Assembly (NCBI RefSeq): GCF_036365525.1
Contig: NC_090378.1
Location: 123,179,593-123,243,592, forward strand
Origin: Heterodontus francisci
Lineage: Eukaryota
Direction of reading: 5' to 3'
Length of the DNA: 64,000 nt
Positions 1 to 63,033 of this stretch are shown in pieces. The translations under genes were made by a program, and so were the position numbers. Positions within the stretch are counted from its first letter, which is position 1, and each line of letters opens with the position of its first letter. The notes under the pieces were generated by a model, which ran no database searches, was not told the DNA's origin, and saw only the letters and a list, made by a program, of their open reading frames with translations.

Positions 1-906
1 TATATATAATATATAATAATGAACACACAGTCCCACCTCCTGTACTGACACATCCCACAGTTATATATAATATATAATAATGAACACACAGTCCCACCTC
101 CTGTACTGACACATCCCACAGTTATATATAATATATAATAATGGACACACAGTCCCACCTCCTGCACTGACACATCCCACAGTTATATATAATATATAAT
201 AATGAACACACAGTCCCACCTCCTGCACTGACACATCCCACAGTTATATATAATATATAATAATGAACACACAGTCCCACCTCCTGTACTGACACGTCCC
301 ACAGTTATATATAATATATAATAATGGACACACAGTCCCACCTCCTGCACAGACACATCCCACAGTTATATATAATATATAATAATGGACACACAGTCCC
401 ACCTCCTGCACTGACACATCCCACAGTTATATATAATATATAATAATGGACACACAGTCCCACCTCCTGTACTGACACGTCCCACAGTTATATATAATAT
501 ATAATAATGGACACACAGTCCCACCTCCTGTACTGACACATCCCACAGTTATATATAATATATAATAATGAACACACAGTCCCACCTCCTGTACTGACAC
601 GTCCCACAGTTATATATAATATATAATAATGAACACACAGTCCCACCTCCTGCACTGACACATCCCACAGTTATATATAATATATAATAATGGACACACA
701 GTCCCACCTCCTGCACTGACACATCCCACAGTTATATATAATATATAATAATGAACACACAGTCCCACCTCCTGCACTGACACATCCCACAATTATATAT
801 AATATATAATAATGAACACACAGTCCCACCTCCTGTACTGACACGTCCCACAGTTATATATAATATATAATAATGGACACACAGTCCCACCTCCTGTACT
901 GACACA

Positions 907-3900
907 TCCCACAGTTATATATAATCTATAATAATGGACACACAGTCCCACCTCCTGTACTGACACGTCCCACAGTTATATATAATATATAATAATGGAC
1001 ACACAGTCCCACCTCCTGTACTGAAACGTTCCACAGTTATATATAATATATAATAATGGACACACAGTCCCACCTCCTGTACTGAAATGTCCCACAGTTA
1101 TATATAATATATAATAATGGACACACAGTCCCACCTCCTGTACTGACACGTCCCAAAGTTATATATAATATATAATAATGGACACACAGTCCCACCTCCT
1201 GTACTGACATGTCCCACAGTTATATATAATATATAATAATGGACACACAGTCCCACCTCCTGTACTGACACGTCCCACAGTTATATAATATAATAATGGA
1301 CACACAGTCCCACCTCCTGGACTGACACGTCCCACAGTTATATATAATATATAATAATGGACACACAGTCCCACCTCCTGTACTGACACGTCCCACAGTT
1401 ATATATAATATATAATAATGGACACACAGTCCCACCTCCTGTACTGACACATCCCACAGTTATATATAATATATAATAATGGACACACAGTCCCACCTCC
1501 TGTACTGAGACGTCCCACAGTTATATAATATAATAATGGACACACAGTCCCACCTCCTGCACTGACACGTCCCACAGTTCTATATAAGATATAATAATGA
1601 ACACACAGTCCCACCTCCGGTACTGACACATCCCACAGTTATATATAATATATAATAATGGACACACAGTCCCACCTCCTGTACTGACACGTCCACAGTT
1701 ATATATAATATATAATAATGGACACACAGTCCCACCTCCTGTACTGACACGTCCCACAGTTATATATAATATATAATAATGGACACACAGTCCCACCTCC
1801 TGTACTGACACGTCCACAGTTATATATAATATATAATAATGGACACACAGTCCCACCTCCTGTACTGACACATCCCACAGTTATATATAATATATAATAA
1901 TGGACACACAGTCCCACCTCCTGTACTGACACGTCCACAGTTATATATAATATATAATAATGGACACACAGTCCCACCTCCTGTACTGACACATCCCACA
2001 GTTATATAAAATATATAATAATGGATACACAGTCCCACCTCCTGTACTGACATGTCCCACAGTTATATAATATAATAATGGACACACAGTCCCACCTCCT
2101 GTACTGACATGTCCCACAGTTATATAATATAATAATGGACACACAGTCCCACCTCCTGTACTGACACATCCCACAGTTATATATAATATATAATAATGGA
2201 CACACAGTCCCACCTCCTGTACTGACATGTCCCACAGTTATATAATATAATAATGGACACACAGTCCCACCTCCTGTACTGACATGTCCCACAGTTATAT
2301 AATATAATAATGGACACACAGTCCCACCTCCTGTACTGACACATCCCACTGTTATATATAATATATAATAATGGACACACAGTCCCACCTCCTGTACTGA
2401 CATGTCCCACAGTTATATAATATAATAATGGACACACAGTCCCACCTCCTGTACTGACACATCCCACTGTTATATATAATATATAATAATGGACACACAG
2501 TCCCAGCTCCTGTACTGACACGTCCCACAGTTATATATAATGTATAATAATGGACACACAGTCCCACCTCCTGTACTGACACATCCCACAGATATATAAT
2601 ATAATAATGGACACACAGTACCACCTCCTGTACTGACACGTCCCACAATTACATATAATATATAATAATGGACACACAGTCCCACCTCCTGTACTGACAC
2701 GTCCCACAGTTATATATAATATATAATAATGGACACACAGTCCCACCTCCTGTACTGACATGTCCCACAGTTATATATAATCTATAATAATGGACACACA
2801 GTCCCACCTCCTGTACTGACACGTCCCACAGTTATATATAATATATAATAATGGACACACAGTCCCACCTCCTGTACTGAAACGTTCCACAGTTATATAT
2901 AATATATAATAATGGACACACAGTCCCACCTCCTGTACTGAAATGTCCCACAGTTATATATAATATATAATAATGGACACACAGTCCCACCTCCTGTACT
3001 GACACGTCCCAAAGTTATATATAATATATAATAATGGACACACAGTCCCACCTCCTGTACTGACATGTCCCACAGTTATATATAATATATAATAATGGAC
3101 ACACAGTCCCACCTCCTGTACTGACACGTCCCACAGTTATATAATATAATAATGGACACACAGTCCCACCTCCTGGACTGACACGTCCCACAGTTATATA
3201 TAATATATAATAATGGACACACAGTCCCACCTCCTGTACTGACACGTCCCACAGTTATATATAATATATAATAATGGACACACAGTCCCACCTCCTGTAC
3301 TGACACATCCCACAGTTATATATAATATATAATAATGGACACACAGTCCCACCTCCTGTACTGAGACGTCCCACAGTTATATAATATAATAATGGACACA
3401 CAGTCCCACCTCCTGCACTGACACGTCCCACAGTTCTATATAAGATATAATAATGAACACACAGTCCCACCTCCGGTACTGACACATCCCACAGTTATAT
3501 ATAATATATAATAATGGACACACAGTCCCACCTCCTGTACTGACACGTCCACAGTTATATATAATATATAATAATGGACACACAGTCCCACCTCCTGTAC
3601 TGACACGTCCCACAGTTATATATAATATATAATAATGGACACACAGTCCCACCTCCTGTACTGACACGTCCACAGTTATATATAATATATAATAATGGAC
3701 ACACAGTCCCACCTCCTGTACTGACACATCCCACAGTTATATATAATATATAATAATGGACACACAGTCCCACCTCCTGTACTGACACGTCCACAGTTAT
3801 ATATAATATATAATAATGGACACACAGTCCCACCTCCTGTACTGACACATCCCACAGTTATATAAAATATATAATAATGGATACACAGTCCCACCTCCTG

Positions 3901-4636
3901 TACTGACATGTCCCACAGTTATATAATATAATAATGGACACACAGTCCCACCTCCTGTACTGACATGTCCCACAGTTATATAATATAATAATGGACACAC
4001 AGTCCCACCTCCTGTACTGACACATCCCACAGTTATATATAATATATAATAATGGACACACAGTCCCACCTCCTGTACTGACATGTCCCACAGTTATATA
4101 ATATAATAATGGACACACAGTCCCACCTCCTGTACTGACATGTCCCACAGTTATATAATATAATAATGGACACACAGTCCCACCTCCTGTACTGACACAT
4201 CCCACTGTTATATATAATATATAATAATGGACACACAGTCCCACCTCCTGTACTGACATGTCCCACAGTTATATAATATAATAATGGACACACAGTCCCA
4301 CCTCCTGTACTGACACATCCCACTGTTATATATAATATATAATAATGGACACACAGTCCCAGCTCCTGTACTGACACGTCCCACAGTTATATATAATGTA
4401 TAATAATGGACACACAGTCCCACCTCCTGTACTGACACATCCCACAGATATATAATATAATAATGGACACACAGTACCACCTCCTGTACTGACACGTCCC
4501 ACAATTACATATAATATATAATAATGGACACACAGTCCCACCTCCTGTACTGACACGTCCCACAGTTATATATAATATATAATAATGGACACACAGTCCC
4601 ACCTCCTGTACTGACATGTCCCACAGTTATATATAA
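907..4636. repeat. Tandem higher-order duplication, 2 x 1856 bp (31 monomers per unit)
   Basis: The rare marker ATAATCTATA recurs at an offset of 1856 (C at 926 and 2782), and ORF-track entries 1159-2761 recur identically at +1856. The length fits 31x61 minus eight 57-bp and three 60-bp monomers. Confidence 0.9.
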
Positions 4637-7221
4637 GATATAATAATGGACACACAGTCCCACCTCCTGTACTGACACGTCCCACAGTTATATATAATAT
4701 ATAATAATGGACACACAGTCCCACCTCCTGTCCTGACACGTCCCACAGTTATATAATATAATAATGGACACACAGTCCCACCTCCTGTACTGACACCTCC
4801 CACAGTTATATATAATATATAATAATGGACACACAGTCCCATCTCCTGTACTGACACGTCCCACAGTTATATATAATATATAATAATGGACACACAGTCC
4901 CATCTCCTGTACTGACACGTCCCACAGTTATATATAATATATAATAATGGACACATAGTCCCACCTCCTGTACTGACACATCCCACACTTATATATAATA
5001 TATAATAATGGACACACAGTCCCACCTCCTGTACTGACACATCCCACACTTATATATAATATATAATAATGGACACACAGTCCCACCGCCTGTACTGACA
5101 CATCCCACAGATATATATAATAAAAAATAATGGACTCACAGTCCCACCTCCTGTACTGACACATCCCACAGTTATATATAATATATAATAATGGACACAC
5201 AGTCCCACCGCCTGTACTGACACATCCCACAGATATATATAATAAAAAATAATGGACTCACAGTCCCACCTCCTGTACTGACACATCCCACAGTTATATA
5301 TAATATATGATAATGGACACGCAGTCCCACCTCCTGTACTGACTCATCCCACAGTTACATATAATTTATGATAATGGACACACAGTCCCACCTCCTGTAC
5401 TGACACTTCCCACAGTTACATACAATATATAATAATGGACACACAGTCCCACCTCCTGCACTGACACGTCCCACAGTTATATACAATATATAATAATGGA
5501 CACACAGTCCCACCTCCTGTATACTGACACATCCCACAGTTATATATAATATATAATAATGGACACACAGTCCCACCTCATGTACTGACATATCCCACAG
5601 TTATATACAATATATAATAATGGACACACAGTCCCACCTCCTGGACTGACACATCCCACAGTTATATGTAATATATAATAATGGACACACGGTCCCACCT
5701 CCTGTACTGACACATCCCACAGTTATATATAATATATAATAATGGACACACAGTCCCACCTCCTGGACTGACACATCCCACAGTTATATATAATATATAA
5801 TAATGGACACACCGTCTCACCTCCTGGACTGACACATCCCACAGTTATATATAATATATAATAATGGACACTCAGTCCCACCTCCTGTACTGACACATCC
5901 CACAGTTATATATAATATATAATAATGGACACACAGTCCCACCTCCTGTACTGACACGTCCCAAAGTTATATATAATATATAATAATGGACACACAGTCC
6001 CACCTCCTGTACTGACATGTCCCACAGTTATATATAATATATAATAATGGACACACAGTCCCACCTCCTGTACTGACACGTCCCACAGTTATATAATATA
6101 ATAATGGACACACAGTCCCACCTCCAGTACTGACACGTCCCACAGTTATATATAATATATAATAATGGACACACAGTCCCACCTCCTGTACTGACACGTC
6201 CCACAGTTATATATAATATATAATAATGGACACACAGTCCCACCTCCTGTACTGACACATCCCACAGTTATATATAATATATAATAATGGACACACAGTC
6301 CCACCTCCTGTACTGAGACGTCCCACAGTTATATAATATAATAATGGACACACAGTCCCACCTCCTGCACTGACACGTCCCACAGTTCTATATAAGATAT
6401 AATAATGAACACACAGTCCCACCTCCGGTACTGACACATCCCACAGTTATATATAATATATAATAATGGACACACAGTCCCACCTCCTGTACTGACACGT
6501 CCACAGTTATATATAATATATAATAATGGACACACAGTCCCACCTCCTGTACTGACACGTCCCACAGTTATATATAATATATAATAATGGACACACAGTC
6601 CCACCTCCTGTACTGACACGTCCACAGTTATATATAATATATAATAATGGACACACAGTCCCACCTCCTGTACTGACACATCCCACAGTTATATATAATA
6701 TATAATAATGGACACACAGTCCCACCTCCTGTACTGACATGTCCCACAGTTATATAAAATATATAATAATGGATACACAGTCCCACCTCCTGTACTGACA
6801 TGTCCCACAGTTATATAAAATATATAATAATGGACACACAGTCCCACCTCCTGTACTGACACATCCCACAGTTATATATAATATATAATAATGGACACAC
6901 AGTCCCACCTCCTGTACTGACATGTCCCACAGTTATATAAAATATATAATAATGGATACACAGTCCCACCTCCTGTACTGACATGTCCCACAGTTATATA
7001 ATATAATAATGGACACACAGTCCCACCTCCTGTACTGACACATCCCACAGTTATATATAATATATAATAATGGACACACAGTCCCACCTCCTGTACTGAC
7101 ATGTCCCACAGTTATATAATATAATAATGGACACACAGTCCCACCTCCTGTACTGACATGTCCCACAGTTATATAATATAATAATGGACACACAGTCCCA
7201 CCTCCTGTACTGACACATCCC

Positions 7222-7229
7222 ACAGTTAT
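7222..7229 (+). other. Left target-site duplication ACAGTTAT of the RTE insertion
   Basis: CC C-ACAGTTAT|TCTTTTGGGCC; the same 8-mer recurs at 8701-8708. Confidence 0.85.
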
Positions 7230-8700
7230 TCTTTTGGGCCTCCTTATCTCGAGAGACAATGGATACGCGCCTGGAGGTGGTCAGTGGTTTGTGAAGCAGC
7301 GCCTGGAGTGGCTATAAAGGCCAATTCTGGAGTGACAGGCTCTTCCACAGGTGCTGCAGAGAAATTTGTTTGTTGGGGCTGTTGCACAGTTGGCTCTCCC
7401 CTTGCGCCTCTGTCTTTTTTCCTGCCAACTACTAAGTCTCTTCGACTCGCCACAATTTAGCCCTGTCTTTATGGCTGCCCGCCAGCTCTGGCGAATGCTG
7501 GCAACTGACTCCCACGACTTGTGATCAATGTCACACGATTTCATGTCGCGTTTGCAGACGTCTTTATAACGGAGACATGGACGGCCGGTGGGTCTGATAC
7601 CAGTGGCGAGCTCGCTGTACAATGTGTCTTTGGGGATCCTGCCATCTTCCATGCGGCTCACATGGCCAAGCCATCTCAAGCGCCGCTGACTCAGTAGTGT
7701 GTATAAGCTGGGGGTGTTGGCCGCTTCAAGGACTTCTGTGTTGGAGATATAGTCCTGCCACCTGATGCCAAGTATTCTCCGAAGGCAGCGAAGATGGAAT
7801 GAATTGAGACGTCGCTCTTGGCTGGCATACGTTGTCCAGGCCTCGCTGCCGTAGAGCAAGGTACTGAGGACACAGGCCTGATACACTCGGACTTTTGTGT
7901 TCCGTGTCAGTGCGCCATTTTCCCACACTCTCTTGGCCAGTCTGAACATAGCAGTGGAAGCCTTACCCATGCGCTTGTTGATTTCTGCATCTAGAGACAG
8001 GTTACTGGTGATAGTTGAGCCTAGGTAGGTGAACTCTTGAACCACTTCCAGAGCGTGGTCGCCAATATTGATGGATGGAGCATTTCTGACATCCTGCCCC
8101 ATGATGTTCGTTTTCTTGAGGCTGATGGTTAGGCCAAATTCATTGCAGGCAGACGCAAACCTGTCGATGAGACTCTGCAGGCATTCTTCAGTGTGAGATG
8201 TTAAAGCAGCATCGTCAGCAAAGAGGAGTTCTCTGATGAGGACTTTCCGTACTTTGGACTTCGCTCTTAGACGGGCAAGGTTGAACAACCTGCCCCCTGA
8301 TCTTGTGTGGAGGAAAATTCCTTCTTCAGAGGATTTGAACGCATGTGAAAGCAGCAGGGAGAAGAAAATCCCAAAAAGTGTGGGTGCGAGAACACAGCCC
8401 TGTTTCACACCACTCAGGATAGGAAAGGGCTCTGATGAGGAGCCACCATGTTGAATTGTGCCTTTCATATTGTCATGGAATGAGGTGATGATACTTAGTA
8501 GCTTTGGTGGACATCCGATCTTTTCTAGTAGTCTGAAGAGACCACGTCTGCTGACGAGGTCAAAGGCTTTGGTGAGATCAATGAAAGCAATGTAGAGGGG
8601 CATCTGTTGTTCACGGCATTTCTCCTGTATCTGACGAAGGGAGAACAGCATGTCAATAGTCGATCTCTCTGCACGAAAGCCACACTGTGCCTCAGGGTAG
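7230..8700 (-). mobile_element. 5'-truncated RTE-clade non-LTR retrotransposon (LINE), 1471 bp, inserted in the satellite
   Basis: RT motifs QCGFR, YIAFIDLTKAFD, GVKQGCVLAPTLF, LLFADD, GLTISLKKT, FTYLG; RTE-type LFNLARLRAK insert and RWLGHVSRM; C-terminal CxxC..H..C finger; ~50-bp 3' UTR ending GGCCCAAAAGAA; flanked by ACAGTTAT direct repeats. Confidence 0.95.
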
Positions 8701-8756
8701 ACAGTTATATATAATATATAATAATGGACACACAGTCCCACCTCCTGTACTGACAT
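7281..8756 (-). CDS. Uninterrupted 491-aa ORF: about 19 satellite-derived residues (MSVQEVGLCVHYYILYITV) fused to the RTE reverse transcriptase and C-terminal zinc finger; no endonuclease; expression unknown
   Basis: The ATG is the reverse complement of CAT at 8754-8756 in a GACATGTCCC monomer; the stop TGA is at 7281-7283; no stops or frameshifts over ~472 LINE codons. Confidence 0.55.
   Translation of the reverse strand: MSVQEVGLCVHYYILYITVYPEAQCGFRAERSTIDMLFSLRQIQEKCREQQMPLYIAFIDLTKAFDLVSRRGLFRLLEKIGCPPKLLSIITSFHDNMKGTIQHGGSSSEPFPILSGVKQGCVLAPTLFGIFFSLLLSHAFKSSEEGIFLHTRSGGRLFNLARLRAKSKVRKVLIRELLFADDAALTSHTEECLQSLIDRFASACNEFGLTISLKKTNIMGQDVRNAPSINIGDHALEVVQEFTYLGSTITSNLSLDAEINKRMGKASTAMFRLAKRVWENGALTRNTKVRVYQACVLSTLLYGSEAWTTYASQERRLNSFHLRCLRRILGIRWQDYISNTEVLEAANTPSLYTLLSQRRLRWLGHVSRMEDGRIPKDTLYSELATGIRPTGRPCLRYKDVCKRDMKSCDIDHKSWESVASIRQSWRAAIKTGLNCGESKRLSSWQEKRQRRKGRANCATAPTNKFLCSTCGRACHSRIGLYSHSRRCFTNH
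8701..8708 (+). other. Right target-site duplication ACAGTTAT of the RTE insertion
   Basis: GGGTAG|ACAGTTAT-ATAATATAT; the satellite phase resumes 8 bp behind where it stopped at 7229. Confidence 0.85.
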
Positions 8757-11700
8757 GTCCCACAGTTATATAATATAATAATGGACACACAGTCCCACCT
8801 CCTGTACTGACACATCCCACAGTTATATATAATATATAATAATGGACACACAGTCCCACCTCCTGTACTGACATGTCCCACAGTTATATAATATAATAAT
8901 GGACACACAGTCCCACCTCCTGTACTGACATGTCCCACAGTTATATAATATAATAATGGACACACAGTCCCACCTCCTGTACTGACACATCCCACTGTTA
9001 TATATAATATATAATAATGGACACACAGTCCCACCTCCTGTACTGACATGTCCCACAGTTATATAATATAATAATGGACACACAGTCCCACCTCCTGTAC
9101 TGACACATCCCACTGTTATATATAATATATAATAATGGACACACAGTCCCAGCTCCTGTACTGACACGTCCCACAGTTATATATAATGTATAATAATGGA
9201 CACACAGTCCCACCTCCTGTACTGACACATCCCACAGTTATATAATATAATAATGGACACACAGTACCACCTCCTGTACTGACACGTCCCACAATTACAT
9301 ATAATATATAATAATGGACACACAGTCCCACCTCCTGTACTGACACGTCCCACAGTTATATATAATATATAATAATGGACACACAGTCCCACCTCCTGTA
9401 CTGACATGTCCCACAGTTATATATAAGTTATAATAATGGACACACAGTCCCACCTCCTGTACTGACACATCCCACAGTTATATATAATATATAATAATGG
9501 ACACACAGTCCCACCTCCTGTCCTGACACGTCCCACAGTTATATAATATAATAATGGACACACAGTCCCACCTCCTGTACTGACACCTCCCACAGTTATA
9601 TATAATATATAATAATGGACACACAGTCCCATCTCCTGTACTGACACGTCCCACAGTTATATATAATATATAATAATGGACACACAGTCCCATCTCCTGT
9701 ACTGACACGTCCCACAGTTATATATAATATATAATAATGGACACATAGTCCCACCTCCTGTACTGACACATCCCACACTTATATATAATATATAATAATG
9801 GACACACAGTCCCACCTCCTGTACTGACACATCCCACACTTATATATAATATATAATAATGGACACACAGTCCCACCGCCTGTACTGACACATCCCACAG
9901 ATATATATAATAAAAAATAATGGACTTACAGTCCCACCTCCTGTACTGACACATCCCACAGTTATATATAATATATAATAATGGACACACAGTCCCACCG
10001 CCTGTACTGACACATCCCACAGATATATATAATAAAAAATAATGGACTCACAGTCCCACCTCCTGTACTGACACATCCCACAGTTATATATAATATATGA
10101 TAATGGACACGCAGTCCCACCTCCTGTACTGACTCATCCCACAGTTATATATAATTTATGATAATGGACACACAGTCCCACCTCCTGTACTGACACTTCC
10201 CACAGTTACATACAATATATAATAATGGACACACAGTCCCACCTCCTGCACTGACACGTCCCACAGTTATATACAATATATAATAATGGACACACAGTCC
10301 CACCTCCTGTACTGACACGTCCCACAGTTATATATAATATATAATAATGGACACACAGTCCCACCTCCTGTACTGACACGTCCCACAGTTATATACAATA
10401 TATAATAATGGACACACAGTCCCACCTCCTGGACTGACACATCCCACAGTTATATGTAATATATAATAATGGACACACGGTCCCACCTCCTGTACTGACA
10501 CATCCCACAGTTATATATAATATATAATAATGGACACACAGTCCCACCTCCTGGACTGACACATCCCACAGTTATATATAATATATAATAATGGACACAC
10601 CGTCTCACCTCCTGGACTGACACATCCCACAGTTATATATAATATATAATAATGGACACTCAGTCCCACCTCCTGTACTGACACATCCCACAGTTATATA
10701 TAATATATAATAATGGACACTCAGTCCCACCTCCTGTACTGACACGTCCCACAGTTATATATAATATATAATAATGGACACACAGTCCCATCTTCTGTAC
10801 TGACACGTCCCACAGTTATATATAATATATAATAATGGACACATAGTCCCACCTCCTGTACTGACACATCCCACACTTATATATAATATATAATAATGGA
10901 CACACAGTCCCACCTCCTGTACTGACACATCCCACACTTATATATAATATATAATAATGGACACACAGTCCCACCGCCTGTACTGACACATCCCACAGAT
11001 ATATATAATAAAAAATAATGGACTCACAGTCCCACCTCCTGTACTGACACATCCCACAGTTATATATAATATATAATAATGGACACACAGTCCCACCGCC
11101 TGTACTGACACATCCCACAGATATATATAATAAAAAATAATGGACTCACAGTCCCACCTCCTGTACTGACACATCCCACAGTTATATATAATATATGATA
11201 ATGGACACGCAGTCCCACCTCCTGTACTGACTCATCCCACAGTTATATATAATTTATGATAATGGACACACAGTCCCACCTCCTGTACTGACACTTCCCA
11301 CAGTTACATACAATATATAATAATGGACACACAGTCCCACCTCCTGCACTGACACGTCCCACAGTTATATACAATATATAATAATGGACACACAGTCCCA
11401 CCTCCTGTACTGACACGTCCCACAGTTATATATAATATATAATAATGGACACACAGTCCCACCTCCTGTACTGACACGTCCCACAGTTATATACAATATA
11501 TAATAATGGACACACAGTCCCACCTCCTGGACTGACACATCCCACAGTTATATGTAATATATAATAATGGACACACAGTCCCACCTCCTGGACTGACACA
11601 TCCCACAGTTATATATAATATATAATAATGGACACACCGTCTCACCTCCTGGACTGACACATCCCACAGTTATATATAATATATAATAATGGACACACAG

Positions 11701-14700
11701 TCCCACCTCCTGGACTGACACATCCCACAGTTATATACAATATATAATAATGGACACACAGTCCCACCTCCTGGACTGACACATCCCACAGTTATATGTA
11801 ATATATAATAATGGACACACAGTCCCACCTCCTGGACTGACACATCCCACAGTTATATATAATATATAATAATGGACACACGGTCCCACCTCCTGTACTG
11901 ACACATCCCACAGTTATATATAATATATAATAATGGACACACAGTCCCACCTCCTGGACTGACACATCCCACAGTTATATATAATATATAATAATGGACA
12001 CACCGTCTCACCTCCTGGACTGACACATCCCACAGTTATATATAATATATAATAATGGACACTCAGTCCCACCTCCTGTACTGACACATCCCACAGTTAT
12101 ATATAATAAATAATAATGGACACACAGTCCCACCTCCTGCACTGCCACATCCCACAGTTATATATAATATAGAATAATGGACACACAGTCCCACCGCCTG
12201 TACTGACACATCCCACAGATATATATAATAAAAAATAATGGACTCACAGTCCCACCTCCTGTACTGACACATCCCACAGTTATATATAATATATAATAAT
12301 GGACACACTGACCCACCTCCTGTACTGACACATCCCACAGTTATATATAATATATAATAATGGACACACAGTCCCACCTCCTGTACTGACACATCCCACA
12401 GATATATATAATAAAAAATAATGGACTCACAGTCCCACCTCCTGTACTGACACATCCCACAGTTATATACAATATATAATAATGGACACACAGTCCCACC
12501 TCCTGGACTGACACATCCCACAGTTATATGTAATATATAATAATGGACACACGGTCCCACCTCCTGTACTGACACATCCCACAGCTATATATAATATATA
12601 ATAATGGACACACAGTCCCACCTCCTGGACTGACACATCCCACAGTTATATATAATATATAATAATGGACACACAGTCCCACCTCCTGGACTGACACATC
12701 CCACAGTTATATAAAATATATAATAATGGACACGCAGTCTCACCTCCTGCACTGACACATCCCACAGTTATATGTAATATATAATAATGGACACACGGTC
12801 CCACCTCCTGCACTGACACATCCCACAGGTATATATAATATATAATAATGGACACGCAGTCTCACCTCCTGTACTGACACATCCCACAGTTATATGTAAT
12901 ATATAATAATGGAAACACGGTCCCACCTCCTGCACTGACACATCCCACAGTTATATATAATATATAATAATGGACACACAGTCCCACCTCCTGTACTGAC
13001 ACATCCCACAGTTATATATAATATATAATAATGGACACACGGTCCCACCTCCTGTACTGACACATCCCACAGTTATATATAATATATAATAATGGACACA
13101 CGGTCCCACCTCCTGTACTGAAATGTCCCACAGTTATATATAATATATAATAATGGACACACAGTCCCACCTCCTGTACTGACATGTCCCACAGTTATAT
13201 ATAATATATAATAATGGACACACAGTCCCACCTCCTGTACTGACACGTCCCACAGTTATATAATATAATAATGGACACACAGTCCCACCTCCTGTACTGA
13301 CACGTCCCAAAGTTATATATAATATATAATAATGGACACACAGTCCCACCTCCTGTACTGACACGTCCCACAGTTATATAATATAATAATGGACACACAG
13401 TCCCACCTCCTGTACTGACATGTCCCACAGTTATATAATATAATAATGGACACACAGTCCCACCTCCTGTACTGACACATCCCACAGTTATATATAATAT
13501 ATAATAATGGACACACAGTCCCACCTCCTGTACTGACATGTCCCACAGTTATATAATATAATAATGGACACACAGTCCCACCTCCTGTACTGACACATCC
13601 CACAGTTATATATAATATATAATAATGGACACACAGTCCCACCTCCTGTACTGACATGTCCCACAGTTATATAATATAATAATGGACACACAGTCCCACC
13701 TCCTGTACTGACATGTCCCACAGTTATATAATATAATAATGGACACACAGTCCCACCTCCTGTACTGACACATCCCACTGTTATATATAATATATAATAA
13801 TGGACACACAGTCCCACCTCCTGTACTGACATGTCCCACAGTTATATAATATAATAATGGACACACAGTCCCACCTCCTGTACTGACACATCCCACTGTT
13901 ATATATAATATATAATAATGGACACACAGTCCCAGCTCCTGTACTGACACGTCCCACAGTTATATATAATGTATAATAATGGACACACAGTCCCACCTCC
14001 TGTACTGACACATCCCACAGTTATATAATATAATAATGGACACACAGTACCACCTCCTGTACTGACACGTCCCACAATTACATATAATATATAATAATGG
14101 ACACACAGTCCCACCTCCTGTACTGACACGTCCCACAGTTATATATAATATATAATAATGGACACACAGTCCCACCTCCTGTACTGACATGTCCCACAGT
14201 TATATATAAGTTATAATAATGGACACACAGTCCCACCTCCTGTACTGACACATCCCACAGTTATATATAATATATAATAATGGACACACAGTCCCACCTC
14301 CTGTCCTGACACGTCCCACAGTTATATAATATAATAATGGACACACAGTCCCACCTCCTGTACTGACACCTCCCACAGTTATATATAATATATAATAATG
14401 GACACACAGTCCCATCTCCTGTACTGACACGTCCCACAGTTATATATAATATATAATAATGGACACACAGTCCCATCTCCTGTACTGACACGTCCCACAG
14501 CTATATATAATATATAATAATGGACACATAGTCCCACCTCCTGTACTGACACATCCCACACTTATATATAATATATAATAATGGACACACAGTCCCACCT
14601 CCTGTACTGACACATCCCACACTTATATATAATATATAATAATGGACACACAGTCCCACCGCCTGTACTGACACATCCCACAGATATATATAATAAAAAA

Positions 14701-44700: not shown

Positions 44701-47700
44701 CTGGACTGACACGTCCCACAGTTATATACAATATATAATAATGGACACACAGTTCCACCTCCTGGACTGACACGTCCCACAGTTATATACAATATATAAT
44801 AATGGACACACAGTCCCACCTCCTGGACTGACACATCCCACAGTTATATGTAATATATAATAATGGACACGCAGTCTCACCTCCTGTACTGACACATCCC
44901 ACAGTTATATGTAATATATAATAATGGACACACGGTCCCACCTCCTGCACTGACACATCCCACATTTATATATAATATATAATAATGGACACACAGTCCC
45001 ACCTCCTGTACTGACACATCCCACTGTTATATGTAATATATAATAATGGACACACGGTCCCACCTCCTGCACTGACAAATCCCACAGGTATATATAATAT
45101 ATAATAATGGACACGCAGTCTCACCTCCTGTACTGACACATCCCACAGTTATATGTAATATATAATAATGGACACACGGTCCCACCTCCTGCACTGACAC
45201 ATCCCACATTTATATATAATATATAATAATGGACACACGGTCCCACCTCCTGTACTGACACATCGCACAGTTATATATAATATATAATAATGGACACACA
45301 GTCCCACCTCCTGGACTGACACATCCCACAGTTATATGTAATATATAATAATGGGCACACCGTCCCACCTCCTGTACTGACACGTCCCACATGTATATAT
45401 AATATATAATAAAGGACACACAGTCCCACCTCCTGGACTGACACATCCCACAGTTATATGTAATATATAATAATGGACACACGGTCCCACCTCCTGTACT
45501 GACACATCCCACATTTTATATATAATATATAATAAAGGACACACAGTCCCACCTCCTGGACTGACACGTCCCACAGTTATATACAATATAAAATAATGGA
45601 CACACAGTCCCACCTCCTGGACTGACACATCCCACAGTTATATATAATATATAATAATGGACACACAGTCCCACCTCCTGTACTGACACATCCCACAGCT
45701 ATATATAATATATAATAATGGGCACACAGTCCCACCTCCTGTACTGACACGTCCCACAGTTATATATAATATATAATAATGGACACACAGTCCCACCGCC
45801 TGTACTGACACATCCCACAGATATATATAATAAAAAATAATGGACTCACAGTCCCACCTCCTGTACTGACACATCCCACAGTTATATATAATATATAATA
45901 ATGGACACACTGACCCACCTCCTGTACTGACACATCCCACAGTTATATATAATATATAATAATGGACACACAGTCCCACCTCCTGTACTGACACATCCCA
46001 CAGATATATATAATAAAAAATAATGGACACACAGTCCCACCTCCTGGACTGACACATCCCACAGTTATATATAATATATAATAATGGACACACAGTCCCA
46101 CCTCCTGTACTGACACATCCCACAGATATATATAATAAAAAATAATGGACACACAGTCCCACCTCCTGGACTGACACATCCCACAGTTATATATAATATA
46201 TAATAATGGACACACAGTCCCACCTCCTGGACTGACAAATCCCACAGTTATATATAATATATAATAATGGACACGCAGTCTCACCTCCTGCACTGACACA
46301 TCCCACAGTTATATGTGATATATAATAATGGACACACGGTCCCACCTCCTGGACTGACACATCCCACAGGTATATATAATATATAATAATGGACACGCAG
46401 TCTCACCTCCTGTACTGACACATCCCACAGTTATATGTAATATATAATAATGGACACACGGTCCCACCTCCTGCACTGACACATCCCACAGTTATATATA
46501 ATATATAATAATGGACACACAGTCCCACCTCCTGTACTGACACATCCCACATTTATATATAATATATAATAATGGACACACGGTCCCACCTCCTGTACTG
46601 ACACATCCCACAGTTATATATAATATATAATAATGGACACACAGTCCCACCTCCTGGACTGACACATCCCACAGTTATATGTAATATATAATAATGGGCA
46701 CACCGTCCCACCTCCTGTACTGACACGTCCCACATTTATATATAATATATAATAAAGGACACTCAGTCCCACCTCCTGGACTGACACATCCCACAGTTAT
46801 ATGTAATATATAATAATGGACACACAGTCCCACCTCCTGTACTGACACATCCCACAGTTATATGTAATATATAATAATGGACACACAGTCCCACCTCCTG
46901 TACTGACACATCCCACATTTTATATATAATATATAATAAAGGACACACAGTCCCACCTCCTGGACTGACACGTCCCACAGTTATATACAATATAAAATAA
47001 TGGACACACAGTCCCACCTCCTGGACTGACACATCCCACAGTTATATATAATATATAATAATGGACACACGGTCCCACCTCCTGCACTGACACATCCCAC
47101 AGTTATATATAATATATAATAATGGACACACAGTCTCACCTTCTGGACTGACACATCCCACAGTTATATATAATACATAATAATGGACACACAGTCTCAC
47201 CTCCTGTACTGACACATCCCACAGCTATATATAATATATAATAATGGGCACACAGTCCCACCTCCTGTACTGACACGTCCCACAGTTATATATAATACAT
47301 AATAATGGACACACAGTCCCACCTCCTGGACTGACACATCCCACAGTTATATGTAATATATAATAATGGACACACAGTCCCACCTCCTCTACTGACACGT
47401 CCCACAGTTATATCCAATATAAAATAATGGACACACAGTCCCACCTCCTGGACTGACACATCCCACAGTTATATATAATATATAATAATGGACACACAGT
47501 CCCACCTCCTGCACTGACACATCCCACAGTTATATATAATATATAATAATGGACACACAGTCTCACCTTCTGGACTGACACATCCCACAGTTATATATAA
47601 TACATAATAATGGACACACTGACCCACCTCCTGCACTGACACGTCCCACAGTTCTATCTAAGATATAATAATGAACACACAGTCCCACCTCCGGTACCGA

Positions 47701-50700
47701 CACATCCCACAGTTATATATAATATATAATAATGGACACACAGTCCCACCTCCTGCACTGACACGTCCCACAGTTATATATAATATATAATAATGGACAC
47801 ACAGTCCCACCTCCTGTACTGACACGTCCCACAGTTATATATCATATATAATAATGGACACACAGTCCCACCTCCTGTACTGACACGTCCACAGTTATAT
47901 ATAATATATAATAATGGACACACAGTCCCACCTCCTGTACTGACACATCCCACAGTTATATATAATATATAATAATGGACACACAGTCCCACCTCCTGTA
48001 CTGACATGTCCCACAGTTATATAATATAATAATGGACACACAGTCCCAGCTCCTGTACTGACATGTCCCACAGTTATATAATATAATAATGGACACACAG
48101 TCCCACCTCCTGTACTGACATGTCCCACAGTTATATAATATAATAATGGACACACAGTCCCACCTCCTGTACTGACACATCCCACAGTTATATATAATAT
48201 ATAATAATGGACACACAGTCCCACCTCCTGTACTGACATGTCCCACAGTTATATAATATAATAATGGACACACAGTCCCACCTCCTGTACTGACATGTCC
48301 CACAGTTATATAATATAATAATGGACACACAGTCCCACCTCCTGTACTGACACATCCCACTGTTATATATAATATATAATAATGGACACACAGTCCCACC
48401 TCCTGTACTGACATGTCCCACAGTTATATAATATAATAATGGACACACAGTCCCACCTCCTGTACTGACACATCCCACTGTTATATATAATATATAATAA
48501 TGGACACACAGTCCCAGCTCCTGTACTGACACGTCCCACAGTTATATATAATGTATGATAATGGACACACAGTCCCACCTCCTGTACTGACACATCCCAC
48601 AGTTATATAATATAATAATGGACACACAGTCCCACTTCCTGTACTGACACGTCCCACAATTACATATAATATATAATAATGGACACACAGTCCCACCTCC
48701 TGTACTGACACGTCCCACAGTTATATATAATATATAATAATGGACACACAGTCCCACCTCCTGTACTGACATGTCCCACAGTTATATATAAGATATAATA
48801 ATGGACACACAGTCCCACCTCCTGTACTGACACGTCCCACAGTTATATATAATATATAATAATGGACACACAGTCCCACCTCCTGTACTGACACGTCCCA
48901 CAGTTATATAATATAATAATGGACACACAGTCCCAACTCCTGTACTGACACCTCCCACAGTTATATATAATATATAATAATGGACACACAGTCCCATCTC
49001 CTGTACTGACACGTCCCACAGTTATATATAATATATAATAATGGACACACAGTCCCACCTCCTGTACTGACATGTCCCACAGTTATATATAAGATATAAT
49101 AATGGACACACACTCCCAACTCCTGTACTGTCACGTCCCACAGTTATATATAATATATAATAATGGACACATAGTCCCACCTCCTGTACTGTCACATCCC
49201 GCACCTATATATAATATATAATAATGGACACACAGTCCCACCTCCTGTACCGACACGTCCCACAGTTATATATAATATATAATAATGGACACATAGTCCC
49301 ACCTCCTGTACTGACACATCCCACACTTATATATAATATATAATAATGGACACACAGTCCCACCTCCTGTACCGACACGTCCCACAGTTATATATAATAT
49401 ATAATAATGGACACATAGTCCCACCGCCTGTACTGACACATCCCACAGATATATATAATAAAAAATAATGGACTCACAGTCCCACCTCCTGGACTGACAC
49501 ATCCCACAGTTATATATAATATATAATAATGGACACACAGTCCCACCGCCTGTACTGACACATCCCACAGATATATATAATAAAAAATAATGGACTCACA
49601 GTCCCACCTCCTGTACTGACACATCCCACAGTTATATATAATATATGATAATGGACACGCAGTCCCACCTCCTGTACTGACACATCCCACAGTTATATAT
49701 AATTTATAATAATGGACACACAGTCCCACCTCCTGGACTGACACTTCCCACAGTTACATACAATATATAATAATGGACAGACAGTCCCACCTCCTGTACT
49801 GACACGTCCCACAGTTATATACAATATATAATAATGGACACACAGTCTCACCTCCTGGACTGACACGTCCCACAGTTATATACAATATATAATAATGGAC
49901 ACACAGTCCCACCTCCTGGACTGACACATCCCACAGTTATATATAATAAATAATAATGGACACACTCCCACCTCCTGCACTGACACATCCCACAGTTATA
50001 TATAATATATAATAATGGACACACAGTCCCACCTCCTGCACTGACACATCCCACAGTTATATATAATATATAATAATGGACACACAGTCCCACCGCCTGT
50101 ACTGACACATCCCACAGATATATATAATAAAAAATAATGGACTCACAGTCCCACCTCCTGTACTGACACATCCCACAGTTATATATAATATATAATAATG
50201 GACACACTGACCCACCTCCTGTACTGACACATCCCACTGTTACATACAATATATAATAATGGACACACAGTCCCACCTCCATTACTGACACGTCCCACAG
50301 TTATATATAATATATAATAATGGACACACAGTCCCACCTCCTGTACTGACACGTCCCACAGTTATATACAATATATAATAATGGACACACAGTCCCACCT
50401 CCTGGACTGACACATTCCACAGTTATATGTAATATATAATAATGGACACACGTTCCCACCTCCTGTACTAACACATCCCACAGTTATATATAATATATAA
50501 TAATGGACACACAGTCCCACCTCCTGGACTGACACAAACCACTGTTATATATAATATATAATAATGGACACACAGTCCCACCTCCTGCACTGACACATCC
50601 CACAGTTATATATAATATATAATAATGGACACACAGTCCCACCTCCTGCACTGACACATCCCACAGTTATATATAATATATAATAATGGACACACCGTCT

Positions 50701-53700
50701 CACCTCCTGGACTGACACAAACCACAGTTATATATAATATATAATAATGGACACACAGTCCCACCTCCTGCACTGACACATCCCACAGTTATATATAATA
50801 AATAATAATGGACACACAGTCCCACCTCCTGCACTGACACATCCCACAGTTATATATAATATATAATAATGGACACACAGTCCCACCGCCTGTACTGACA
50901 CATCCCACAGATATATATAATAAAGAATAATGGACTCACAGTCCCACCTCCTGCACTGACACATCCCACAGTTATATATAATATATAATAATGGACACAC
51001 TGACCCACCTCCTGTCCTGACACATCCCACAGTTATATATAATATATAATAATGGACACACAGTCCCACCTCCTGTACTGACACATCCCACAGATATATA
51101 TAATAAAAAACAATGGACTCACAGTCCCACCTCCTGTACTGACACATCCCACAGTTATATACAATATATAATAATGGACACACAGTCCCACCTCCTGGAC
51201 TGACACGTCCCACAGTTATATACAATATATAATAATGGACACACAGTCCCACCTCCTGGACTGACACGTCCCACAGTTATATACAATATATAATAATGGA
51301 CACACAGTCCCACCTCCTGGACTGACACATCCCACAGTTATATGTAATATATAATAATGGACACACGGTCCCACCTCCTGTACTGACACATCCCACAGCT
51401 ATATATAATATATAATAATGGACACACAGTCCCACCTCCTGTATACTGACACATCCCACAGTTATATATAATATATAATAATGGACACACAGTCCCACCT
51501 CCTGGACTGACACATCCCACAGTTATATATAATATATAATAATGGACACACCGTCCCACCTCCTGGACTGACACATCCCACAGTTATATATAATATATAA
51601 TAATGGACACACAGTCCCACCTCCTGGACTGACACATCCCACAGTTATATATAATATATAATAATGGACACGCAGTCTCACCTCCTGCAATGACACATCC
51701 CACAGTTATATGTAATATATAATAATGGACACACGGTCCCACCTCCTGCACTGACACATCCCACAGGTATATATAATATATAATAATGGACACGCAGTCT
51801 CACCTCCTGTACTGACACATCCCACAGTTATATGTAATATATAATAATGGACACACGGTCCCACCTCCTGCACTGACACATCCCACAGTTATATATAATA
51901 TATAATAATGGACACACAGTCCCACCTCCTGTAGTGACACATCCCACATTTATATATAATATATAATAATGGACACACGGTCCCACCTCCTGTACTGACA
52001 CATCCTACAGTTATATATAAAATATAATAATGGACACACAGTCCCACCTCCTGGACTGACACATCCCACAGTTATATGTAATATATAATAATGGGCACAC
52101 AGTCCCACCTCCTGTACTGACACGTCCCACATTTATATATAATATATAATGAAGGACACACAGTCACACCTCCTGGACTGACACATCCCACAGTTATATG
52201 TAATAAATAATAATGGGCACACAGTCCCACCTCCTGCACTGACATGTCCCACATTTATATATAATATATAATAAAGGACACACAGTCCCACCTCCTGGAC
52301 TGACACATCCCACAGTTATATATAATATATAATAATGGACACACGGTCCCACCTCCTGTACTGACACATCCCACATTTATATATAATATATAATAAAGGA
52401 CACACTGTCCCACCTCCTGGACTGACACGTCCCACAGTTATATACAATATAAAATAATGGACACACGGTCCCACCTCCTGGACTGACACATCCCACAGTT
52501 ATATATAATATATAATAATGGACACACGGTCCCACCTCCTGCACTGACACATCCCACAGTTATATATAATATATAATAATGGACACAGAGTCTCACCTTC
52601 TGGACTGACACATCCCACAGTTATATATAATACATAATAATGGACACACAGTCTCAACTCCTGTACTGACACATCCCACAGCTATATATAATATATAATA
52701 GTGGACACACAGTCCCACCTCCTGTATACTGACACATCCCACAGTTATATATAATACATAATAATGGACACACAGTCCCACCTCCTGGACTGACACATCC
52801 CACAGTTATATGTAATATATAATAATGGACACACAGTCTCACCTCCTGCACTGACACATCCCACAGTTATATATAATATATAATAATGGACACACAGTCC
52901 CACCGCCTGTTCTGACACATCCCACAGATATATATAATAAAGAATAATGGACTCACAGTCCCACCTCCTGCACTGACACATCCCACAGTTATATATAATA
53001 TATAATAATGGACACACTGACCCACCTCCTGTCCTGACACATCCCACAGTTATATATAATATATAATAATGGACACACAGTCCCACCTCCTGTACTGACA
53101 CATCCCACAGATATATATAATAAAAAACAATGGACTCACAGTCCCACCTCCTGCACTGACACATCCCACAGTTATATATAATATATAATAATGGACACAC
53201 TGACCCACCTCCTGTCCTGACACATCCCACAGTTATATACAATATATAATAATGGACACACAGTCCCACCTCCTGGACTGACAAGTCCCACAGTTATATA
53301 CAATATATAATAATGGACACACAGTCCCACCTCCTGGACTGACACATCCCACAGTTATATGTAATATATAATAATGGACACACAGTCCCACCTCCTGTAC
53401 TGACACATCCCACAGCTATATATAATATATAATAATGGACACACAGTCCCACCTCCTGTATACTGACACATCCCACAGTTATATATAATATATAATAATG
53501 GACACACAGTCCCACCTCCTGGACTGACACATCCCACAGTTATATATAATATATAATAATGGACACACAGTCCCACCTCCTGGACTGACACATCCCACAG
53601 TTATATATAATATATAATAATGGACACACAGTCCCACCTCCTGGACTGACACATCCCACAGTTATATATAATATATAATAATGGACACGCAGTCTCACCT

Positions 53701-56700
53701 CCTGCACTGACACATCCCACAGTTATATGTAATATATAATAATGGACACACGGTCCCACCTCCTGCACTGACACATCCCACAGGTATATATAATATATAA
53801 TAATGGACACGCAGTCTCACCTCCTGTACTGACACATCCCACAGTTATATGTAATATATAATAATGGACACACGGTCCCACCTCCTGCACTGACACATCC
53901 CACAGTTATATATAATATATAATAATGGACACACAGTCCCACCTCCTGTAGTGACACATCCCACATTTATATATAATATATAATAATGGACACACGGTCC
54001 CACCTCCTGTACTGACACATCCCACAGTTATATATAATATATAATAATGGACACACAGTCCCACCTCCTGGGCTGACACATCCCACAGTTATATGTAATA
54101 TATAATAATGGGCACACAGTCCCACCTCCTGTACTGACACGTCCCACATTTATATATAATATATAATAAAGGACACACAGTCCCACCTCCTGGACTGACA
54201 CATCCCACAGTTAGATGTAATATATAATAATGGGCACACAGTCCCACCTCCTGTACTGACACATCCCACAGTTATATATAATATATAATAATGGACACAC
54301 AGTCCCACCTCCTGTACTGACACATCCCACATTTATATATAATATATAATAAAGGACACACAGTCCCACCTCCTGGACTGACACATCCCACAGTTATATA
54401 TAATATATAATAATGGACACACGGTCCCACCTCCTGTACTGACACATCCCACATTTATATATAATATATAATAAAGGACACACAGTCCCACCTCCTGGAC
54501 TAACACGTCCCACAGTTATATATAATATATAATAGTGGACACACAGTCCCACCTCCTGTATACTGACACTTCCCACATTTATATATAATATATAATAAAG
54601 GACACACGGTCCCACCTCCTGTACTGACACATCCCACATTTATATATAATATATAATAAAGGACACACAGTCCCACCTCCTGGACTAACACGTCCCACAG
54701 TTATATATAATATATAATAATGGACACACAGTCCCACCTCCTGGACTGACACATCCCACAGTTATATGTAATATATAATAATGGACACACATTCCCACCT
54801 CCTGTACTGACACATCCCACAGTTATATACAATATAAAATAATGGACACACAGTCCCACCTCCCGCACTGACACATCCCACAGTTATATATAATATATAA
54901 TAATGGACACACGGTCCCACCTCCTGCACTGACACATCCCACAGTTATATATAATATATAATAATGGACACACGGTCCCACCTCCTGCACTGACACATCC
55001 CACAGTTATATATAATATATAATAATGGACACACAGTCTCACCTTCTGGACTGACACATCCCACAGTTATATATAATACATAATAATGGACACACAGTCT
55101 CACCTCCTGTACTGACACATCCCACAGCTATATATAATATATAATAATGGACACACAGTCCCACCTCCTGTATACTGACACATCCCACAGTTATATATAA
55201 TATATAATAATGGACACACAGTCCCACCTCCTGTACTGACACATCCCACAGATATATATAATAAAAAACAATGGACTCACAGTCCCACCTCCTGTACTGA
55301 CACATCCCACAGTTATATACAATATATAATAATGGACACACAGTCCCACCTCCTGGACTGACACGTCCCACAGTTATATACAATATAAAATAATGGACAC
55401 ACAGTCCCACCTCCTGGACTGACACATCCCACAGTTATATATAATATATAATAATGGACACACGGTCCCACCTCCTGCACTGACACTTCCCACAGTTATA
55501 TATAATATATAATAATGGACACACAGTCTCACCTTCTGGACTGACACATCCCACAGTTATATATAATACATAATAATGGACACACAGTCTCACCTCCTGT
55601 ACTGACACATCCCACAGCTATATATGATATATAATAATGGACACACAGTCCCACCTCCTGTATACTGACACATCCCACAGTTATATATAATATATAATAA
55701 TGGACACACAGTCCCACCTCCTGTACTGACACATCCCACAGATATATATAATAAAAAACAATGGACTCACAGTCCCACCTCCTGTACTGACACATCCCAC
55801 AGTTATATATAATATATAATAATGGACACACAGTCCCACCTCCTGGACTGACACGTCCCACAGTTATATACAATATATAATAATGGACACACAGTCCCAC
55901 CCCCTGGACTGACACATCCCACAGTTATATGTAATATATAATAATGGACACACGGTCCCACCTCCTGTACTGACACATCCCACAGCTATATATAATATAT
56001 AATAATGGACACACAGTCCCACCTCCTGTATACTGACACATCCCACAGTTATATATAATATATAATAATGGACACACAGTCCCACCTCCTGGACTAACAC
56101 ATCCCACAGTTATATATAATATATAATAATGGACACACAGTCCCACCTCCTGGACTGACACATCCCACAGTTATATATAATATATAATAATGGACACACA
56201 GTCCCACCTCCTGGACTGACACATCCCACAGTTATATATAATATATAATAATGGACACGCAGTCTCACCTCCTGCACTGACACATCCCACAGTTATATGT
56301 AATATATAATAATGGACACACGGTCCCACCTCCTGCACTGACACATCCCACAGGTATATATAATATATAATAATGGACACGCAGTCTCACCTCCTCTACT
56401 GACACATCCCACAGTTATATTTAATATATAATAATGGACACACGGTCCCACCTCCTGCACTGACACATCCCACAGTTATATAGAATATATAATAATGGAC
56501 ACACAGTCCCACCTCCTGTCGTGACACATCCCACATTTATATATAATATATAATAATGGACACACGGTCCCACCTCCTGTACTGACACATCCCACAGTTA
56601 TATATAATATATAATAATGGACACACAGTCCCACCTCTTGGACTGACACATCCCACAGTTATATGTAATATATAATAATGGGCACACAGTCCCACCTCCT

Positions 56701-59139
56701 GTACTGACATGTCCCACATTTATATATAATATATAATAATGGACACACAGTCCCACCTCCTGGACTGACACATCCCACAGTTATATGTAATATATAATAA
56801 TGGGCACACAGTCCCACCTCCTGTACTGACACGTCCCACATTTATATATATCATATATAATAAAGGACACACAGTCCCACCTCCTGGACTGACACATCCC
56901 ACAGTTATATATAATATATAATAATGGACACACGGTCCCACCTCCTGTACTGACTCATCCCACATTTATATATAATATATAATAAAGGACACACAGTCCC
57001 ACCTCCTGGACTGACACGTCCCACAGTTATATACAATATAAAATAATGGACACACAGTCCCACCTCCTGGACTGACACATCCCACAGTTATATATAATAT
57101 ATAATAATGGACACACAGTCTCACCTTCTGGACTGACACATCCCACAGTTATATATAATATATAATAATGGACACACAGTCCCACCTCCTGGACTGACAC
57201 ATCCCACAGTTATATATAATATATAATAATGGACACACAGTCCCACCTCCTGTACTGACACATCCCACAGCTATATATAATATATAATAGTGGACACACA
57301 GTCCCACCTCCTGTATACTGACACTTCCCACAGTGATATATAATACATAATAATGGACACACAGTCCCACCTCCTGGACTGACACATCCCACAGTTATAT
57401 GTAATATATAATAATGGACACACAGTCCCACCTCCTGTACTGACACGTCCCACAGTTATATACAATATAAAATAATGGACACACAGTCCCACCTCCTGGA
57501 CTGACACATCCCACAGTTATATATAATATATAATAATGGACACACGGTCCCACCTCCTGCACTGACACATCCCACAGTTATATATAATATATAATAATGG
57601 ACACACAGTCTCACCTTCTGGACTGACACATCCCACAGTTATATATAATACATAATAATGGACACACAGTCTCACCTCCTGTACTGACACATCCCACAGC
57701 TATATATAATATATAATAATGGACACACAGTCCCACCTCCTGTATACTGACACATCCCACAGTTATATATAATATATAATAATGGACACACAGTCTCACC
57801 TCCTGTACTGACACATCCCACAGCTATATATAATATATAATAATGGACACACAGTCCCACCTCCTGCATACTGACACATCCCACAGTTATATATAATATA
57901 TAATAATGGACACACAGTCCCACCTCCTGGACTGACACATCCCACAGTTATATATAATATATAATAATGGACACACAGTCTCACCTCCTGGACTGACACA
58001 TCCCACAGTTATATATAATATATAATAATGGACACACAGTCCCACCTCCTGGACTGACACATCCCACAGTTATATATAATATATAATAATGGACACACAG
58101 TCCCACCTCCTGGACTGACACGTCCCACAGTTATATATAATATATAATAATGGACACACGCTCCCACCTCCTGAACTGACACATCCCACAGTTATATATC
58201 ATATAAAATAATGGACACACAGTCCCACCTCCTGGACTGACACATGCCACAGTTATATATAATATATAATGATGGACACACAGTCCCACCTCCTGGACTG
58301 ACACATCCCACAGTTATATATCATATATAATAATGGACACACAGTCCCACCTCCTGGACTGACACATCCCACAGTTATATATAATATATAATAATGGACA
58401 CACAGTCCCACCTCCTGGACTGACACATCCCACAGTTATATATCATATAAAATAATGGACACACAGTCCCACCTCCTGGACTGACACATCCCACAGTTAT
58501 ATATAATATATAACAATGGACACACAATCCCACCTCCTGGACTGACACATCCCACAGTTGTATATAATATATAATAATGGACACACAGTCCCACCTCCTG
58601 GACTGACACATCCCACAGTTATATATAATATATAATAATGGGCACACAGTCCCACCTCCTGGACTGACACATCTCACAGTTATATATAATATATAATAAT
58701 GGACACACAGTCCCACCTCCTGTACTGACACGTCCCACAGTTATATATAATATATAATAATGGACACACAGTCCCACCTCCTGGACTGACACATCTCACA
58801 GTTATATATAATATATAATAATGGACACACAGTCCCACCTCCTGTACTGACACGTCCCACAGTTATATATAATATATAATAATGGACACACGGTCCCACC
58901 TCCTGAACTGACACATCCCACAGTTATATATGTAATATAATTAATGAAGAACGTAAACTGATCAAATTAAACCATGACATTATGTTCACTGTCCACTACA
59001 CCCCCCTGCCCCTGTGGTGCCCACTGCTCATTGAAGGCTTAAGTTGTTCCTCGAACACTCCATGTGCACTTATGAAGAGATGCTGAAAATGTTTTCATTG
59101 AATTGGGATTCCAACTCTCCCGAGCACTGCTGCATGCAG

Positions 59140-62001: not shown

Positions 62002-62209
62002 TCCACCTGACATTTATCATAAGCAGACTTTTTCTTCTTTATCTTAACCTCTGTCTCTTTTGTCATCCAGGGAGCTCTGGATTTGTTTGCCCCACGTTTC
62101 CCCTTCGTGGAAATACACCTTGGTTTTGCCCGAACTATCTCTTCTTTAAAAGCAGCCCATTGTTCAGTTACAGTTCTCCAATTTATCTGGGTCAGATCCA
62201 TTCTTACCC

Positions 62210-63020: not shown

Positions 63021-63033
63021 AACACAGAGCAGA

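Follow-up and report, generated by a model that had tools for sequence, protein, structure and literature searches.

A 61-bp satellite occupies the V–J spacers of immunoglobulin kappa clusters in the horn shark

The 64,000-nucleotide stretch of the horn shark Heterodontus francisci analysed here (the window; G000:C8:123179593-123243592, within a 6.0-Gb genome) consists over positions 1–58946 of a head-to-tail array of 937 units of 61 bp. Here we show that this satellite separates the variable (V) from the joining (J) segment of an immunoglobulin (Ig) kappa cluster, that it is confined to the V–J spacers of the 28 clusters of the family, that it runs in one orientation between recombination signal sequences (RSSs) that remain intact, and that V–J joined sequences of the family occur. 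Pointing to words in each unit that recall an RSS heptamer and nonamer, the original prediction had seen in the array either a descendant of an Ig-cluster signal or a decoy or cryptic substrate of the RAG recombinase that silences or destabilises the cluster. We consider it probable instead that the array is simply the kappa V–J spacer, built from a unit derived from the V flank, expanded in 28 clusters and deleted as a passenger of RAG-mediated joining. This layout is likely to be new for shark Ig kappa clusters, and the likeness to RSSs is likely to be incidental.

Position and confinement of the satellite

Upstream of the window, an Ig kappa leader and a V exon, both intact (locus L030 6442-6978), are followed by a consensus V 12-RSS, that is, one with a 12-nt spacer, at G000:C8:123176571, 3,021 nt before the window; the array sets in 5 nt behind the nonamer of this signal. 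The J segment stands past the array, at a heptamer-to-heptamer distance of 66.1 kb from V (Table 1), and the constant (C) exon of the cluster lies 4 kb past J, outside the window (G000:C8:123246722-123247048). Because V adjoins the start of the array and J lies beyond its end, the satellite is DNA intervening between V and J. The extent of about 59 kb first given for the array holds, with two corrections: a long interspersed nuclear element (LINE) fragment breaks it, and its first units precede the window.

The same layout recurs across the locus. Kappa copies on contig C8 between 115.7 and 124.8 Mb comprise 28 V, 28 J and 28 C, arranged as one V-J-C set per cluster with the V 12-RSS facing the J 23-RSS; the locus reads on the minus strand below 120.7 Mb and on the plus strand above 121.0 Mb. 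Each V (28/28) is unjoined and carries a consensus heptamer, with the array starting 5 nt past its nonamer. V–J distances range from 7.5 to 216.6 kb (median 48.9 kb), of which satellite makes up 3.4–207 kb per spacer and, in total, 1.46 of 1.59 Mb of spacer DNA. Genome-wide, 7,531 of 7,542 exact 29-mer matches fall inside these 28 spacers, the other 11 (8 forward, 3 reverse) lying outside the fetched stretches; the satellite thus belongs to the Ig clusters, as had been proposed, and the refuting outcome, a satellite lying for the most part away from antigen-receptor loci, was not observed. Head-to-tail units, kilobase-scale length variation and a confined location are the traits of a locus-specific satellite, or macro variable number tandem repeat. 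All 23,729 units in the 28 arrays read from V to J and none is reversed, which, with heptamer and array kept at 28/28 V, speaks against the germline destabilisation that had been envisaged. The intervals cover all 28 clusters except 1.5 kb beside J in five, and J alleles were read in 23 of the 28: the CAC of the J RSS heptamer is kept in 22 of these 23, and the flank upstream of J is retained in 28/28 (the full 121-nt query matched in 27/28). The J that has lost its CAC (L013) belongs to the 80-kb L053 cluster and is likely non-functional, as is L050, a 15-kb cluster with an altered leader splice donor. An orphan kappa J-like segment stands at L221:5303 (G000:C2:125446227), where 10 kb of sequence yielded neither V nor C nor satellite.

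By sequence comparison, these are shark Ig kappa clusters of the NS4/type III family. The C domain is 93–99% identical to H. francisci proteins named kappa-like and 84% identical to nurse shark P0009, a protein assigned to NS4 through the framework region 1 (FR1) primer in PMC2193156; identity between P0009 and the joined protein P0005 is 78%. The FR1 motif agrees with nurse shark NS4, and the leader intron (186 bp, GT..AG, skipped in 4/4 sequencing runs) matches that of NS4, which has a leader intron of 186 bp and is described as homologous to horn shark type III (PMC2193156); NS4/type III is termed kappa in PMC5192425 and PMC4279169. A sigma-cart/type I identity was a first guess, dropped on the C identity, the 186-bp leader intron and comparison with a light-chain family on contig C46, in which V and J stand 378–381 bp apart in 5/5 pairs. 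That C46 family, with its V–J distance of about 380 bp, probably fits the published type I gene. No match to the satellite was found in any of 21 control stretches (0 in 21/21), mostly other light-chain-like families, and no look-alike of the monomer among the other DNA windows compared. The controls also include 2/2 clusters on C36 with V and J about 0.38 kb apart, two germline-joined genes on C23, and a stretch of another light-chain family with two tandem V–J pairs before one C (L228; G000:C46:15155500-15165499).

In contigs that probably represent RNA, from 4/4 runs of one sample, the leader intron has been removed by splicing and V ends continue directly into J, evidence of somatic V–J rearrangement and expression at the level of the family; such contigs cannot rank clusters and drop rare variants. 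One V end of the kind typical of L054/L058, whose spacers measure 35–36 kb with 32–33 kb of satellite, is joined to J; L047/L049 (51 kb) come closest to the joined protein P0005, with 3 differences in 88 amino acids. The window's own V allele (L030:6827) is present in X1/X2, a hint of expression only. For L060, which has the longest spacer (216.6 kb), no contig runs over its own end of complementarity-determining region 3 and cover dips at its private bases, a result that is neutral either way. Because joined V–J sequences occur in probable RNA, B cells likely still excise the array and, as no assembled cluster has an array shorter than 3.4 kb, every V–J join likely deletes satellite. At the level of the family, the spliced joins also contradict the proposed silencing.

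That this layout is an assembly artefact of inflated arrays or falsely duplicated clusters is barely credible. Near-identical inverted pairs (L037/L038, L043/L044, L047/L049) and other close pairs would suit such an error, yet the 22,986 units compared include 4,494 distinct 61-mers, several insertions of LINEs and of elements resembling short interspersed nuclear elements (SINEs) are independent, the 27 other fetched intervals hold no N and lengths differ within most cluster pairs; false duplication, moreover, would alter the cluster count and not the layout. Three clusters of C8 119.10-119.53 Mb recur in inverted order at 122.81-123.25 Mb (L038/L037, L044/L043, L049/L047) with near-identical V and spacer lengths, through either a recent inverted duplication or a false one. 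The LINE family has inserted several times independently, in the window and in the arrays of L043, L044, L053, L060, L061, L062 and L064, for the most part where the monomer is AT-rich and in either orientation, and some insertions were later amplified with the array; the window copy sits in that same AT-rich part and has an 8-bp target duplication. A SINE-like element is present in the L061 array.

Further features of the window are collected in Table 1. A CA/GA repeat at 62323–62868, at most 0.8 kb from J, holds 12-spacer RSS-like words with 3 mismatches that are convergent and, under the 12/23 rule, legal with the J RSS, so forming a closer legal J partner than the satellite; such words are present in several copies in 6 of the 23 clusters covered close to J (the window's and L038, L039, L042, L045 and L050). 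Beyond the window, a 45-bp minisatellite of 247 copies starts 1.1 kb past the C exon (L031-L032, 4.6–15.7 kb past the window end), and the C of the upstream cluster is followed by a shorter array related to it.

Table 1. Features of the window between the V and C exons of its kappa cluster
Feature	Position	Strand	Remarks
Satellite array, first part	1..7229	+	61-bp unit; array start 2,988 nt upstream of the window
LINE fragment, 5′-truncated	7230..8700	-	1.47 kb; reverse transcriptase (Pfam RVT_1)
Satellite array, main part	8701..58946	+	61-bp unit
Non-satellite remainder of V–J spacer	58947..63033	.	dispersed and simple repeats
12-spacer RSS-like words of CA/GA repeat	62323, 62623, 62697, 62769, 62841
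J 23-RSS	63034..63072	-	heptamer 6/7, nonamer 7/9; convergent with V RSS
J kappa segment (LTFGKGTKLRL) and splice donor	63073..63107	+

Likeness to recombination signals and origin of the unit

Each 61-bp unit carries two CACAGT words on the plus strand, convergent with the J 23-RSS, as first described. CACAGT occurs in the window array 1,501 times on the plus strand and once on the minus strand (CACAGTT 754, CACAGTC 733), and heptamers with at most one mismatch number 1,521; the heptamer-like words are real, then, and the earlier count of about 1,900 was too high. In the common unit, CACAGTT followed after 23 nt by ACACAGTCC matches the heptamer at 6/7 and the nonamer at 6/9, which also bears out the earlier reading. 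Of the 754 CACAGTT words, 466 are separated from an intact second word by exactly 23 nt, and 85 have 19 nt. The bare CAC is found 4,551 times on the plus strand against 43 on the minus strand. Because a head-to-tail array has a single orientation, the common direction of these words counts as one fact and not as about 1,900.

Under a filter of at most 4 mismatches, the criterion for strong cryptic RSSs in PMC11153149, positions 1–58946 contain 501 RSS-like words with a 23-nt spacer, against 9 words of any kind, 6 of them 23-spacer, in 120 kb of flank; the cryptic RSS-like words of the original prediction are therefore present. Three 23-spacer words in the window have 3 mismatches (at 24743, 57329 and 58492). 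When the monomer was shuffled with its dinucleotides preserved (20,000 shuffles), at least 12/16 was reached with a 23-nt spacer in 0.65% and with either spacer in 1.4%, and shuffles that kept both CACAGT words in place reached 6/9 in 2.8%. The likeness is real but modestly above chance, and was picked post hoc. The two halves of the monomer share CACAGT and scattered bases only, with a 31-bp period at 51%; an older internal duplication, first raised as a caveat, is conceivable. Minus-strand open frames of the array are translations of the repeat.

Descent of the unit from an Ig-cluster signal is not borne out. Alignment of the monomer to the real signals is no better than that of shuffles (p = 0.37 for the V RSS, p = 0.15 for the J RSS), spacer and nonamer taken alone give p = 0.92 and 0.63 (4,000 shuffles), and the unit corresponds instead to the flank behind the nonamer. 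Eight V gene models from basking shark, cloudy catshark, zebra and bamboo sharks that read through the RSS, chosen by eye from 25 proteins, all align with the start of the array (8/8), at 61–82% over 16–28 codons with the RSS codons included; in P0010, 11 of 12 residues beyond the RSS match the array start. The five models from basking shark and catshark differ at the codon completing the first CACAGT word, with A, F or A/E in place of V. Because read-through models from other sharks match the array start, the monomer is likely old kappa V flank. The 0.5-kb spacer of nurse shark has room for at most about 8 units.

What resembles a nonamer is the CACAGT word of the next unit, and the last heptamer-like word of the array has a nonamer match of only 0–2 of 9 in 27/27 arrays scored. 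As the apparent nonamer is the next CACAGT and is gone at the 3′ end of the array, the 7-23-9 pattern is most simply the product of the duplication junction, and is likely to be its by-product.

A proposed history of the array and its alternatives

The history that we favour would begin with a founding tandem duplication of ordinary DNA just behind the V RSS in one ancestral cluster, which would precede the multiplication of clusters. The arrays may then have grown by unequal exchange, their length changing cluster by cluster and LINE and SINE-like insertions being carried along. RAG would join V to J at their genuine 12-RSS and 23-RSS and so delete the array, bridging tens of kilobases by diffusion or looping, unlike the 0.25–0.5 kb of shark clusters; synapsis would be needed over 15–430 times the 0.5-kb distance, and cryptic cutting within the array would be rare.

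Several points weigh against this history. The evidence from other sharks consists of predicted proteins, and the RNA data are contigs of one sample whose RNA label is a guess and which may come from another individual with other array lengths. The array is kept in 28/28 clusters, which could reflect selection. The RSS-like score of the monomer lies above most shuffles (p = 0.0065–0.014), and conservation at the CAC of CACAGTT is somewhat above that of random columns (p = 0.013, one of four sets tried, in related haplotypes). Across the 28 arrays 15,968 words pass the filter of at most 4 mismatches, and 863 have at most 3, the mismatch count of the real J RSS. Satellites can, in addition, be RAG substrates, as mouse gamma-satellite contains active cryptic recombination signals (PMC2193808).

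These latter points would suit a decoy for V, in which RAG inverts V onto the satellite and inactivates the cluster, array length and variants tuning productive rearrangement. By their sequence, and under the 12/23 rule (PMC9099191), the 23-spacer words would be legal partners of the V 12-RSS and not of J; the array was thus first assigned the wrong partner, the legal one being a V signal outside the window, and the accompanying caveats, that a 23-spacer word cannot pair with the J 23-RSS and that the nonamer-like word lacks the A-tract, stand. Because the words and the V RSS have the same orientation, which makes for inversional joining (PMC11153149), V–satellite joining would invert and not delete. 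The words lie far closer to V than J does, those on the V strand number 15,968 with a 23-nt spacer against 14 with a 12-nt spacer, they have the CAC at heptamer positions 1–3 expected of cryptic RSSs, the shuffle test gives p of about 0.01, and the mouse gamma-satellite offers a precedent. About 200 of the 863 words with at most 3 mismatches also have A at nonamer position 6. The common unit, by contrast, has G there, where A is carried by 18/18 23-RS in Table I of PMC2193808 and kept by the shark J RSS. Among the 4,494 distinct units, nonamer columns are no more conserved than others (p = 0.49), heptamer conservation gives p = 0.14 and matched positions p = 0.056; the change to a perfect heptamer is found in 73 haplotypes against 24–457 for other T-to-G columns, and is neither rare nor enriched. 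RAG is active in the germ cells of sharks (PMC2193156), yet 0 of 23,729 germline units are reversed, and the duplication junction already accounts for the pattern. We regard a decoy as decidedly unlikely.

It is very improbable that convergent CAC words soak up scanning RAG bound at J and so silence or destabilise the cluster. The strand bias of CAC in the window array would favour such capture, and convergent CACs are used at a very low level in mouse (PMC11153149); yet 23/23 pairing is illegal, the array stands in all 28 clusters of a family that is nonetheless spliced and V–J joined, and J signals persist, with the upstream flank at 28 J and the CAC in 22/23 J RSSs.

Selection might also have acted on the spacer through distance or chromatin and not through any motif, its length delaying rearrangement or blocking germline joining. 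The array is lost in no cluster (minimum 3.4 kb), 0/28 V are germline-joined whereas about 10% of some 50 are so in nurse shark (PMC2193156), and the assignable joins came from clusters of 35–51 kb. At a 10% rate, however, 0/28 is expected about 1 time in 20; lengths span a 60-fold range, recent cluster duplication explains the shared layout, and contigs cannot rank clusters. We hold a selected spacer to be very improbable.

A combined version, unlikely in our judgement, is that a V-flank motif has been turned into a V(D)J brake: weak 23-RSS words in their thousands beside each V, and 3–207 kb of distance, would set each cluster's chance of a productive join, force long-range synapsis and permit joins between clusters. 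Of 26 V, 6 have the J of the next cluster less than 216.5 kb away, closer than the longest spacer inside a cluster.

Relation to known systems

An expressed family whose 28 spacers run from 7.5 to 217 kb, whose signals are near-identical and whose V ends can be told apart offers a natural dose series for RAG partner choice, in distance and in cryptic-signal load, and it bears on exclusion among many clusters. Were the array a RAG substrate, it would form a locus-confined decoy field; were it not, thousands of near-RSS words are tolerated beside a real signal. As a brake, it would make the locus a naturally occurring intermediate between the cluster and translocon layouts, with long-range synapsis in a lineage said not to need it. 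A literature search, with most subscription journals outside its scope, returned no account of satellite-filled V–J spacers.

Shark clusters are described with V and J 250–500 bp apart and with rearrangement that needs no long-range folding (PMC5192425, PMC2435157). That spacing, typical of shark clusters according to PMC5192425, is exceeded in 28/28 horn shark kappa clusters (7.5–216.6 kb). Nurse shark NS4, as described in PMC2193156, and horn shark type III share the V-J-C cluster, the 186-bp leader intron, the FR1 motif, the split state of the segments and a V 12-RSS paired with a J 23-RSS. They differ in the spacer, 502–524 bp in nurse shark and 7.5–217 kb of largely satellite DNA in horn shark, and in germline joining, reported for about 10% of about 50 nurse shark V and seen in 0/28 here.

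Shark Ig heavy-chain (IgH) miniloci likewise have one V and one J per cluster and many clusters, with segments about 400 bp apart, and rearrange at short range, without long-distance recombination or contraction in the account of PMC2435157; in horn shark kappa, the distance within a cluster reaches the scale of that between clusters. Mouse Igk (PMC11153149) shares the consensus kappa V 12-RSS and long-distance joining past convergent CACs, but it is a translocon with Cer/Sis elements, whereas horn shark kappa consists of clusters. Mouse gamma-satellite (PMC2193808) shares a unit with heptamer-spacer-nonamer-like words at very high copy. Its activity has been demonstrated, whereas that of the horn shark array would have to be presumed from sequence likeness; the horn shark array, unlike gamma-satellite, is confined to Ig spacers and lies in one orientation beside a real 12-RSS.

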